Shown here piece by piece: positions 33,518 to 36,155 of a stretch of DNA of 64,000 nt. Position numbers and translations under genes: made by a program. The notes beneath the pieces were generated by a model. That model did not search any database and was not told where the DNA came from. It saw nothing but the letters and a program-made list of their open reading frames with translations. The first letter of the stretch is position 1. The number at the start of each line of letters is the position of its first letter. The stretch comes from Candidatus Thorarchaeota archaeon (GTDB lineage: Archaea > Asgardarchaeota > Thorarchaeia > Thorarchaeales > Thorarchaeaceae): positions 22,465 through 86,464 of the forward strand of contig DXJO01000022.1 of the NCBI GenBank assembly GCA_019057475.1, read 5' to 3'.

Positions 33518-33593
33518 AATTAAGCTTTTGGAGGATAATTACAAACACAGCAGGCTTTTTGAAGGCTTGAAAGAATCGATGCACGTGAAACTG

Positions 33594-33971
33594 ATGAACG
33601 AGAGCGCAGTCGTTATTGAAATCGAGTTCGATGATGGAACTGTCTTGAAAGGAGTACTTGACAGAGTGTTAGGCCCGCTCATCATCGCAGATATTAAAGC
33701 CGCTGCACCAATCGATGGCAAGGCTGCCCTAATGAGAGGAGCTATGCAGATAACAATTGGAATCAAGAGAGGCAATCGGAGACCCACAAATGATGTGAAA
33801 AAAGGTGACATTGCATACATGCCACTCGGCGACAATCTCTGCATCTACCTCAAGGATACGCGAACATTTAGTCCAGTAAACATCTTGGGCAAAGTCACAT
33901 CAGATGATGTTCTTGAGAAGCTTGACAGAATTCGTCGTGGTAGCAGGGCCACGTTTCGGATTATGGAATGA
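33594..33971 (+). CDS. Cyclophilin-like fold protein (TM1367/DUF369 type)
   Basis: VKKGDIAYMPLGDNLCIY...SPVNILGKV motif; start reassigned to MNESAVV. Confidence 0.85.
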   Translation: MNESAVVIEIEFDDGTVLKGVLDRVLGPLIIADIKAAAPIDGKAALMRGAMQITIGIKRGNRRPTNDVKKGDIAYMPLGDNLCIYLKDTRTFSPVNILGKVTSDDVLEKLDRIRRGSRATFRIME

Positions 33972-33981
33972 AGCAGAGGAT

Positions 33982-34533
33982 TCAAATTCGTTGTAGATTC
34001 CTAATGATCTCCTCATTCTCGTCAGGCGTTTTGACTGTTGGATCAACGGTCATTCCAGGTTCGTGGGTTTCAATCAGAACCTCCATTCCAGAGTCCTTGA
34101 CTTTCTTGAACCCGTTGCTAGATAGCGCCCGAACTGTAAGATGAGTCGTATTGAATTCAGTCCTGGCGAGGGTTTCCACTGTTCGCAATTCTCTTCGCAA
34201 CTTCGATCTAGTCATGCGAACTTGCTCTTTGAGCTCAGCAACTTGGACTTGCAATTCCCTACGTTGACTATGCTCAGTTTCAAGCCGCAACTTCAAATCG
34301 GCATAATCAGCCTTTGGGATGTAATCCTTTGTCCGGTCAATCCAAGTGACTGTTGTGCCATCGAACCGCCTTTTTGTAGCCACAAGATCCAGTGCATTCA
34401 AGATCGCGATGACATCATACACCCTTCGCTTTGGAGCGTTCAACATGTCGGCCAGAATGTCACTGCGAACCCCCTCGGTTCCGCTCGCCTTCAAGAGCCT
34501 AATTGACTCTTTTGCCAGTTCAACCAGCTTCAC
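33982..34533 (-). CDS. E2F/DP-like winged-helix transcription factor with coiled coil
   Basis: KRRVYDVIAILNALDLV...VTWID matches the E2F/DP RRxYD recognition helix and wing Trp; followed by a heptad coiled coil. GTG start at 34533 after GGGGTG. Confidence 0.8.
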   Translation of the reverse strand: MKLVELAKESIRLLKASGTEGVRSDILADMLNAPKRRVYDVIAILNALDLVATKRRFDGTTVTWIDRTKDYIPKADYADLKLRLETEHSQRRELQVQVAELKEQVRMTRSKLRRELRTVETLARTEFNTTHLTVRALSSNGFKKVKDSGMEVLIETHEPGMTVDPTVKTPDENEEIIRNLQRI

Positions 34534-34823
34534 AATCGCACCCCAAGAATGTGCCGGCGTATGGCGGCCTCCGAGCACACTCCCAGTGGGTTTCGGGTAG
34601 GAAGTATTTAGATGTTTGTGTTGTGTAGCGATTTTCCGATGGTTCTCACTGATAACCAAAGCTATTATTACTCGAATGATTCTGCGAAAAATCGCCGGGT
34701 AAAATGAGCGGTTTGTATGACCAATGAGCATCCAGGGTGAGGTGCCGTCAACACCCAAGATTATTTATCATGCATGCTTCGCACGAGCCACCAGTTCACA
34801 CACATTGACAGGTGGCAGTTGAT

Positions 34824-36155
34824 ATGGACAGAAGAAAAATAGTGATTATGGGCGCAGCTGGTCGTGATTTCCACAACTTCAACACATACTTCCGTGACAA
34901 TGAACATTATGATGTTGTTGCGTTCACAGCTGAGCAAATCCCCGGGATAGGGGACAGAATATATCCACCGGAACTTACAGGTAAGCTTTATCCCGATGGC
35001 ATTAGGATCTATCCGGAAGAGAAACTCCCTGAGCTGATCGAGAAGTACAACGTCGAACAGTGCATTCTAGCATACTCTGACCTTCCATACTACACAGTAG
35101 GCAGCAAGATTGCATGGGTTAACTCTCTGGGACCGGATATTCGACTGATGGGTCCTAAGCTCACCATGTTGAAGAGCAAGAAACCAGTGGTAGCCATCTG
35201 TGCAGTGCGAACTGGTTGTGGCAAGAGCCAGACATCTCGGAGGGTAAATCAGATACTCGTTGACAAGGGCCTGAAACCGGTGAATATCAGACACCCCATG
35301 CCCTACGATCCGGACCTGACCACTCAGATTGCTCAGAGGTACGAAGTGCTGGAAGACTTAGACCGTTACAACTGCACAATCGAAGAGCGCGAGGAATACG
35401 AACCCATGATTAGCATGGGAGTGATTCTCTACGCAGGAGTGGATTATGGCCAGATTCTGAAGCAAGCTGAGAAAGAGGCGGATGTAATTACATGGGATGG
35501 CGGTAACAACGATTTCTCATTCTACAAACCTGACCTTCTCATTACGCTTGTGGACCCTCTCAGGCCAGGACACGAGATTTCATACTATCCCGGCGAAACC
35601 AACCTAATAATGTCAGACGTCGTCATAATCAACAAGGTAGTTACGGCAGATTATGATGATATCGAGGAGGTTCGTGATAACATCATGGCGGTCAATCCCA
35701 ACGCCATCATAATCGAGGCTGCCTCACCACTCACGGTTGATGATATGGACCTCATCAAAGGCAAGAGAGTGATTGTAGTCGAGGATGGACCGACAGTGAC
35801 TCACGGCGACATGCCGTTTGGTGCTGGGTATGTTGCAGCGCGTAAGGCAGGCGCAATCATCGTTGACCCAAGGCCATTCGCTGTGGGCAGCATAAAGGAA
35901 ACCTTCGAGAAGTATATGCACCTCGAGGATGTTTTACCCGCGATGGGATATGGCGATACACAGATGAAGGAACTTGAGATGACCATTAACAAGTCCGATG
36001 TAGACGCAATAGTGATTGGAACACCAATTGATCTTGGAAAGCTCATCAAGATCAATAAGCCTAACACAAGGGTCAGATATGATCTACAGGAGATTGGGCG
36101 ACCGAACCTTGAAGATATCCTGTCGGAATTCGTCAAGAAGCATAAGCTGAATTGA
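34824..36155 (+). CDS. COG2403 P-loop NTPase (cDPG-synthetase-related; probably the arginine synthetase ArcE-like clade)
   Basis: GAAGRDFHNFN, RTGCGKS, RHPMPY, TIEEREEYE, WDGGNND and VEDGPT motifs. Confidence 0.85.
   Translation: MDRRKIVIMGAAGRDFHNFNTYFRDNEHYDVVAFTAEQIPGIGDRIYPPELTGKLYPDGIRIYPEEKLPELIEKYNVEQCILAYSDLPYYTVGSKIAWVNSLGPDIRLMGPKLTMLKSKKPVVAICAVRTGCGKSQTSRRVNQILVDKGLKPVNIRHPMPYDPDLTTQIAQRYEVLEDLDRYNCTIEEREEYEPMISMGVILYAGVDYGQILKQAEKEADVITWDGGNNDFSFYKPDLLITLVDPLRPGHEISYYPGETNLIMSDVVIINKVVTADYDDIEEVRDNIMAVNPNAIIIEAASPLTVDDMDLIKGKRVIVVEDGPTVTHGDMPFGAGYVAARKAGAIIVDPRPFAVGSIKETFEKYMHLEDVLPAMGYGDTQMKELEMTINKSDVDAIVIGTPIDLGKLIKINKPNTRVRYDLQEIGRPNLEDILSEFVKKHKLN

Follow-up and report, generated by a model that had tools for sequence, protein, structure and literature searches.

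A gene within a 64,000-nucleotide (nt) window of the genome of a Candidatus Thorarchaeota archaeon (contig DXJO01000022.1, positions 22,465 to 86,464) encodes a small protein with an N-terminal winged helix that is homologous to the DNA-binding domain in eukaryotic E2F transcription factors and keeps the RRxYD base-contact motif of that family. The gene occupies positions 33982–34533 of the window on the minus strand (183 codons plus the stop codon, with a GTG start codon at 34533) and is a Thorarchaeota member of the Asgard E2F/DP-like family, which has already been published (Eme et al., 2023, Nature 618:992). The explanation that we favor as a whole, and regard as fairly probable, is that the product is an Asgard E2F-family homodimer recognizing TTTSGCGC sequences, with sites at thyA, the gene for thymidylate synthase, and at the MCM gene. 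According to this explanation, the small DNA binder would work as a parallel homodimer held together by a coiled coil at the position of the E2F zipper and by a conserved C-terminal β domain; the two winged helices of the homodimer would pair as they do in E2F–DP, and the homodimer would recognize the TTTSGCGC-type sites that lie upstream of both genes in Thorarchaeota.

The E2F/DP-type winged-helix domain comprises residues 1–66 (34336–34533, minus strand), with the KRRVYD motif at residues 35–40 and the wing Trp at residue 64. The Pfam family E2F_TDP (PF02319) matched residues 4–65 over profile positions 6–64 of 65 with 33.4 bits (E 3.9e-8), above the curated gathering threshold of 25.7 bits, and it matched nothing else in the 3.34-Mb source genome (96% complete; the window lies on its contig C56) in a six-frame search (35.1 bits), making the E2F-like gene single-copy. 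P34, K35, R36, R37, Y39, D40, and W64 were invariant among 25 homologues, and the RRxYD motif and the wing Trp aligned with their E2F counterparts, KRRIYD and the wing Trp (I.W). These results bear out the E2F/DP-like DNA-binding domain proposed in a first-pass annotation made from the DNA letters, whose peptide is indeed the translation of 33982–34533 on the minus strand. TrmB or another generic winged helix, which that annotation had named as the competing outcome, was not what the profiles returned, as TrmB (PF01978) and MarR (PF01047) gave no match in the protein at E values up to 10.

Profile–profile comparison using hhalign against 20 eukaryotic E2F proteins, either named as such or confirmed by Pfam, yielded a probability of 98.6% with an E value of 5.9e-16 over the 61-column domain, and a probability of 98.8% over 106 collinear columns when the domain and the following coiled coil were taken together. 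The best matches by sequence among solved structures were E2F8 (PDB 4YO2; family profile E 1.1e-6) and E2F4. When the family profile was run against 1.84 billion representative proteins, only 60 hits were obtained, consisting of small Asgard-type forms and eukaryotic E2Fs; all proteins checked from outside the small forms carried PF02319, in most cases accompanied by the E2F coiled-coil–marked-box family (E2F_CC-MB, PF16421) or by a second E2F domain. In addition, AlphaFold2 placed a winged helix at residues 1–64, with a predicted local distance difference test (pLDDT) score of 84–91 for the domain. Since the Pfam match exceeds its cut-off, the hhalign comparison is strong, and the reciprocal search retrieved E2F proteins only, we conclude that this domain is a true E2F-family winged helix.

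The winged helix is followed by a coiled coil at residues ~69–123 (34165–34329, minus strand) and by a C-terminal domain at residues 124–183 (33985–34164, minus strand), and this layout is also seen in relatives from other Asgard lineages. AlphaFold2 modeled a single long helix at residues 74–123, and then strands and a terminal helix, in agreement with the coiled coil of about 45 residues and the short β-rich segment described in the first-pass annotation. The coiled coil was collinear with the E2F zipper and began at the same spacing from the winged helix in the hhalign alignment, as had also been claimed. Aligned on its own against the E2F zipper, it gave a probability of 77% (E 2e-5), compared with 1.2% or less for reversed and column-shuffled controls; circular-shift controls were uninformative, as the local alignment recovers the same match. 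The sequence comparison thus suggests that the coiled coil of the E2F-like protein and the E2F zipper share descent. The C-terminal domain, which is conserved across Asgard classes, consists of four β strands and a terminal helix, and the same four strands and helix were obtained when residues 116–183 were folded alone with 48 diverse homologues (pLDDT 84.7). A Kariarchaeaceae homologue listed in supplementary file 5 of Eme et al. (2023), as far as its entry there goes, has the winged helix joined straight to the β domain with no coiled coil; this form raises the idea that the β domain may be an older partner of the DNA-binding domain than the coiled coil is.

Prediction of the homodimer gave a score of 0.52, compared with 0.00 for the best of three controls; among proteins of solved structure, 20 of 30 one-chain pairs and one of 23 single chains came up to the mark used for this score. 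Contacts agreed to at least 92% between runs, and the partner pLDDT was at least 78. In the model, the coiled coils are parallel and in register, with contacts at 80:80, 84:84, 94:94, 98:98, and 101:101, and, besides the coiled coil, the interface takes in two helices of the winged helix (1 and 3) and nearly every residue from 124 to 165. The modeling makes a parallel homodimer the most likely state of the protein, in line with the homodimer proposed in the first-pass annotation; it supports pairing without showing pairing.

If the base contacts are conserved, the E2F consensus would be the site expected for this protein. Thymidylate synthase and MCM are classical E2F targets in eukaryotes, and a candidate site, TTTGGCGC, is present at both genes in this genome (G000:C40:18190 for thyA and G000:C54:25739 for MCM). 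The thyA site, ATTTGGCGCGATTT, is upstream of what is the genome's sole thymidylate synthase gene, and the MCM site lies 113–116 nt upstream of MCM, at the end of the preceding gene. Among Thorarchaeota, 26 of the 41 thyA upstream windows contained a site, the chance expectation being ~5%, and a site was found in one of 29 such windows from a large Asgard family that lacks the gene; the relatives are not independent, and these counts contrast one clade with the rest. The position of the thyA sites is conserved in Thorarchaeota, although they occur in both orientations and their flanks have diverged. Similarly, sites were present in 10 of the 21 Thorarchaeota MCM upstream windows, compared with none of 19 in an Asgard family without the gene. 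At MCM, the spacing between the site and a TATA-like box (conserved TTAAATA) is fixed, with the site 41–46 nt upstream, a position typical of an upstream regulator. A motif-free count upstream of thyA gave GCGCCA as the most shared 6-mer (32 of 41 Thorarchaeota), and all 38 distinct sites had the GCGC core even though the search pattern also allowed CCGC. From these comparisons we infer that TTTSGCGC-type sites are most likely what the E2F-like protein recognizes.

The thyA upstream region shows a larger arrangement in many Thorarchaeota genera (loci L105–L141), in which TCTAGTRAA, then TACCAA..ATGAAACA, and then the site follow in a fixed order, and AAARCTAGAATA stands ~75 nt past the site, shortly before the start codon; the same arrangement is seen in this genome at G000:C40:18180–18330. 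Elsewhere in this genome, a perfect 12-nt palindromic E2F-type site, TTTGGCGCCAAA, is located at G000:C19:1126–1137, ~200 nt upstream of an open reading frame of 244 amino acids (aa) without a Pfam family. In the same genome, two Ras-family small GTPase genes and a TBP gene have TTTSGCGC 11–63 nt upstream (G000:C29:73197, C39:30940, and C40:22480). Three genes tied to nucleotide or pterin metabolism, namely pyrI, a gene of the AIR-synthase family, and a 6-pyruvoyl-tetrahydropterin-synthase gene, have it 99–153 nt upstream (G000:C15:9584, C34:56311, and C7:8048).

Several observations weigh against the reading that an E2F-family homodimer acts at these sites. In the other Asgard families that carry the gene, the site was found in one of 10 thyA upstream windows, which is the chance level, and in none of nine MCM upstream windows. 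TTTSSCGC was not enriched in the intergenic DNA of this genome (43 of 304 sites, or 14%, against 12% of the bases), and no TTTSSCGC site was found in the promoter of the E2F-like gene itself in 41 loci. The putative link between the sites and the protein depends on how closely the sites resemble the eukaryotic consensus and on a contrast at the level of one clade, which counts as a single phylogenetic event. Furthermore, the homodimer is a model prediction only, and the coiled-coil similarity is weak evidence for common descent. Whole-model fold searches (Foldseek; VIA-align, 48,161 chains), which cannot separate E2F from MarR or Z-alpha, ranked MarR, ArsR, and Z-alpha first and did not single out E2F; the comparison with E2F/DP structures suggested in the first-pass annotation returned no E2F/DP chain.

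One alternative is that the protein is a true E2F-family DNA binder with a different motif and different targets of its own, and that some other Thorarchaeota regulator acts through the TTTSGCGC sites at thyA and MCM. The absence of the sites in the other families with the gene and the lack of genome-wide enrichment would both be expected in that case. In addition, the promoter of the E2F-like gene carries a different conserved motif, the near-palindrome CGATTTTTCG (34685–34694, minus strand), which is not an E2F-type site and lies in the divergent promoter region (34534–34811) shared with the neighboring gene. In relatives, motifs of this type (TTTTTCGAA, TTTTTCG(A), or TCGAAAAATCG) were found 100–230 nt before the start of the E2F-like gene, with either orientation occurring, at about 30 of the 41 Thorarchaeota loci. 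Against another regulator stands the fact that thyA and MCM are both classical E2F targets in eukaryotes. The motif, in addition, equals the eukaryotic E2F consensus, which is predicted beforehand from the invariant RRxYD contacts (Eme et al., 2023, Supplementary 4.1.5). We consider this alternative unlikely, although it is the one to be taken most seriously.

The first-pass annotation had gone further and read the order of domains as that of E2F itself. This reading holds for the winged helix and the coiled coil and is not supported at the marked box: of the Pfam profiles it proposed, E2F_TDP passed, and E2F_CC-MB (PF16421) and DP (PF08781) gave no match in the protein at E values up to 10. 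If the full ancestral E2F/DP architecture were present, the tail would be a true homologue of the marked box and the homodimer would pair as E2F–DP does. The order and sizes of the domains are alike, the coiled coil stays in register with the E2F zipper in the alignment, and the predicted dimer interface includes the tail, just as the marked box is part of the interface in E2F–DP (PDB 2AZE). Yet hhalign gave a probability of only 0.2% for the β tail against the E2F marked box, and the tail model (pLDDT 84.7) matched no PDB chain, E2F/DP chains included. Across the genome, PF16421 had no match at E values up to 1, and the best PF08781 match, located elsewhere, was at chance level (E 0.55, 11.3 bits). 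In a language-model search of residues 116–183 within the whole protein, E2F_CC-MB clusters appeared at 0.77 and 0.76; we discounted these hits and read them as winged-helix context, because the same 68 residues alone gave no usable match. An identity of the β tail with the marked box is not supported by sequence or fold, and we regard the full E2F/DP architecture as quite improbable.

The protein ends at residue 183, just past the β domain, and has no C-terminal transactivation or pocket-protein-binding region. The best match to the Rb pocket family RB_A (PF01858) in the genome was at chance level (E 0.68). With no DP partner, recognizable marked box, or Rb-like pocket protein, control of the E2F-like protein must differ from the eukaryotic Rb–E2F switch.

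Of the 400 Asgard genomes surveyed, 139 had a match to the gene, mostly one each, and matches occurred in 40 of the 85 genera. It was present in 75 of 85 genomes of the family to which this genome belongs, and three weak matches were found in the 135 genomes of the largest Asgard family sampled; no E2F-like gene was found in the four model archaea among the control genomes. This patchiness, together with the near-absence from the largest family, is what horizontal transfer from a eukaryote could leave behind, and after such a transfer the gene would be uninformative on E2F ancestry. In a maximum-likelihood tree of the domain, however, one branch (support 100/97) separated 37 archaeal from 23 eukaryotic rows, so that the archaeal domains group together rather than falling among the eukaryotic ones. 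The tree was built from 74 columns and is unrooted; its eukaryotic rows comprise typical E2Fs and both E2F7/8-like domains, without DP sequences. This split argues against recent transfer from eukaryotes, as do the spread of the gene over nearly half of the genera sampled and the conservation across classes of both the architecture and the cyclophilin-like neighbor described below, and we judge transfer very improbable. Still less credible is convergence on one short motif by a generic winged-helix regulator of archaea, similar to TrmB or MarR, which would fit the leading fold-search hits and the sub-threshold TrmB matches given by some relatives, but not the PF02319 match above its cut-off with neither TrmB nor MarR detected, the similarity over the whole 61-column domain, or the presence of E2F domains in every checked profile hit outside the small Asgard-type forms.

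That the protein represents an ancestor of E2F and DP from before their duplication, as the first-pass annotation had it, is plausible. No longer or fused forms of the Asgard family were found, which is weak evidence, and the family profile did not retrieve DP among solved structures (E up to 10) or in the checked hits from the representative library (E up to 0.001). The accompanying statement that E2F/DP is specific to eukaryotes is out of date. Supplementary 4.1.5 of Eme et al. (2023) describes E2F/DP homologues with conserved base-contact residues across most Asgard groups, and the paper states there that the Asgard proteins are without the dimerization domain; a 2024 review likewise notes that Asgard genomes carry E2F homologues. 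The table of eukaryotic signature protein (ESP) sequences that accompanies the former contains PF02319 proteins that share this 183-aa layout, and the PKRRVYD motif occurs in it 60 times. One of its entries equals, save for the start, the homologue P0012 over the stretch shown, P0012 being 64% identical to the E2F-like protein. Our literature search found no paper on the DNA sites or the oligomeric state of the Asgard E2F homologues. What goes beyond the published work is the predicted dimerization module, which is at odds with the published statement, and the conserved E2F-type sites at two DNA-synthesis genes.

The GTG codon at 34533 was assigned as the start because all 25 aligned homologues, mostly 180–183 aa long, begin at the MKLV position. 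A longer frame to a TTG codon at 34758 was considered as the gene and ruled out by this common start. The frame does stay open for 75 codons 5′ of the true GTG start (34534–34758, minus strand), and the public calls of 199–249 aa for near-identical proteins probably have wrong starts. A Shine–Dalgarno-like GGGGTG (34539–34544, minus strand) stands 5 nt 5′ of the GTG and presumably serves in translation initiation. The commonest shared 8-mer of the intergenic region 5′ of the gene was GCACCCCA/GGGGTGCA, found in 33 of 41 Thorarchaeota loci. The closest genomic matches were Thorarchaeota metagenome-assembled genomes (best, 98% identity to JABCTJ010000098), which settles the taxonomy check called for in the first-pass annotation.

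On the 3′ side, the convergent neighbor is a cyclophilin-like gene (33549–33971, plus strand; PF04126, Pfam 45 bits), and the stops of the two genes are 10 nt apart. Nearly all Thorarchaeota loci have the cyclophilin-like and E2F-like genes side by side, as do 11 of 17 loci of five other Asgard families, where the pair was convergent wherever the orientation was checked; the breadth of conservation of this pair is unusual. The divergent neighbor (34812–36155, plus strand) encodes a P-loop-like protein of 447 aa with distant similarity to cyclic 2,3-diphosphoglycerate synthetase (PDB 9sxb_A, E 7.3e-5), with a weak cobW match and no Pfam or NCBIfam family above cut-off. It is present at this position in the Thorarchaeota loci and is unusually well conserved, at about 77–97% identity. 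NCBIfam has no family for the E2F-like protein or for either of these two nearest neighbors.

The origin of the eukaryotic G1/S transcription program is an open question, and the mere presence of E2F-like genes in Asgard genomes is already published. A bolder claim, which we put forward tentatively and with distinctly less confidence than the explanation as a whole, is that the homodimer directly controls thyA and MCM through TTTSGCGC, so that both the link of E2F to replication and a zipper-type module would predate eukaryotes. If true, this would run counter to the published view, in which nothing but the DNA-binding domain is shared by the Asgard proteins. Should binding be confirmed, the wiring of E2F to DNA-synthesis genes would have arisen before the nucleus, Rb, and the cyclin-dependent kinases.

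Among known systems, the Asgard E2F/DP homologues of Eme et al. (2023) belong to the same family, and what is added here is a predicted homodimer and candidate target sites, which that paper does not name. DP1 and DP2 (PF02319 plus PF08781) share the winged-helix family and the RRxYD motif with the Asgard protein, which has no PF08781 match. E2F7 and E2F8, which provide the best structure match (PDB 4YO2), act without DP and place two E2F-type domains on one site; the two domains lie in one chain in these proteins, whereas in the Asgard protein each is predicted to come from a separate chain, and the tree places the E2F7/8 domains with the eukaryotic E2Fs and apart from the archaeal rows. Unlike E2F1–6 (PF02319 plus PF16421), the Asgard protein is 183 aa long and has no recognizable marked box, no transactivation or pocket-binding tail, and no DP partner, and in place of their heterodimer it is predicted to form a homodimer in which the C-terminal β domain has no PDB match. 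With E2F1–6 (E2F4–DP2, PDB 1CF7) it nevertheless shares the RRxYD motif, the wing Trp, and a coiled coil that starts ~10 residues past the domain; in addition, the candidate Thorarchaeota sites equal the E2F1–6 consensus TTTSGCGC, and the candidate targets, thyA and MCM, match those of E2F1–6 as well.
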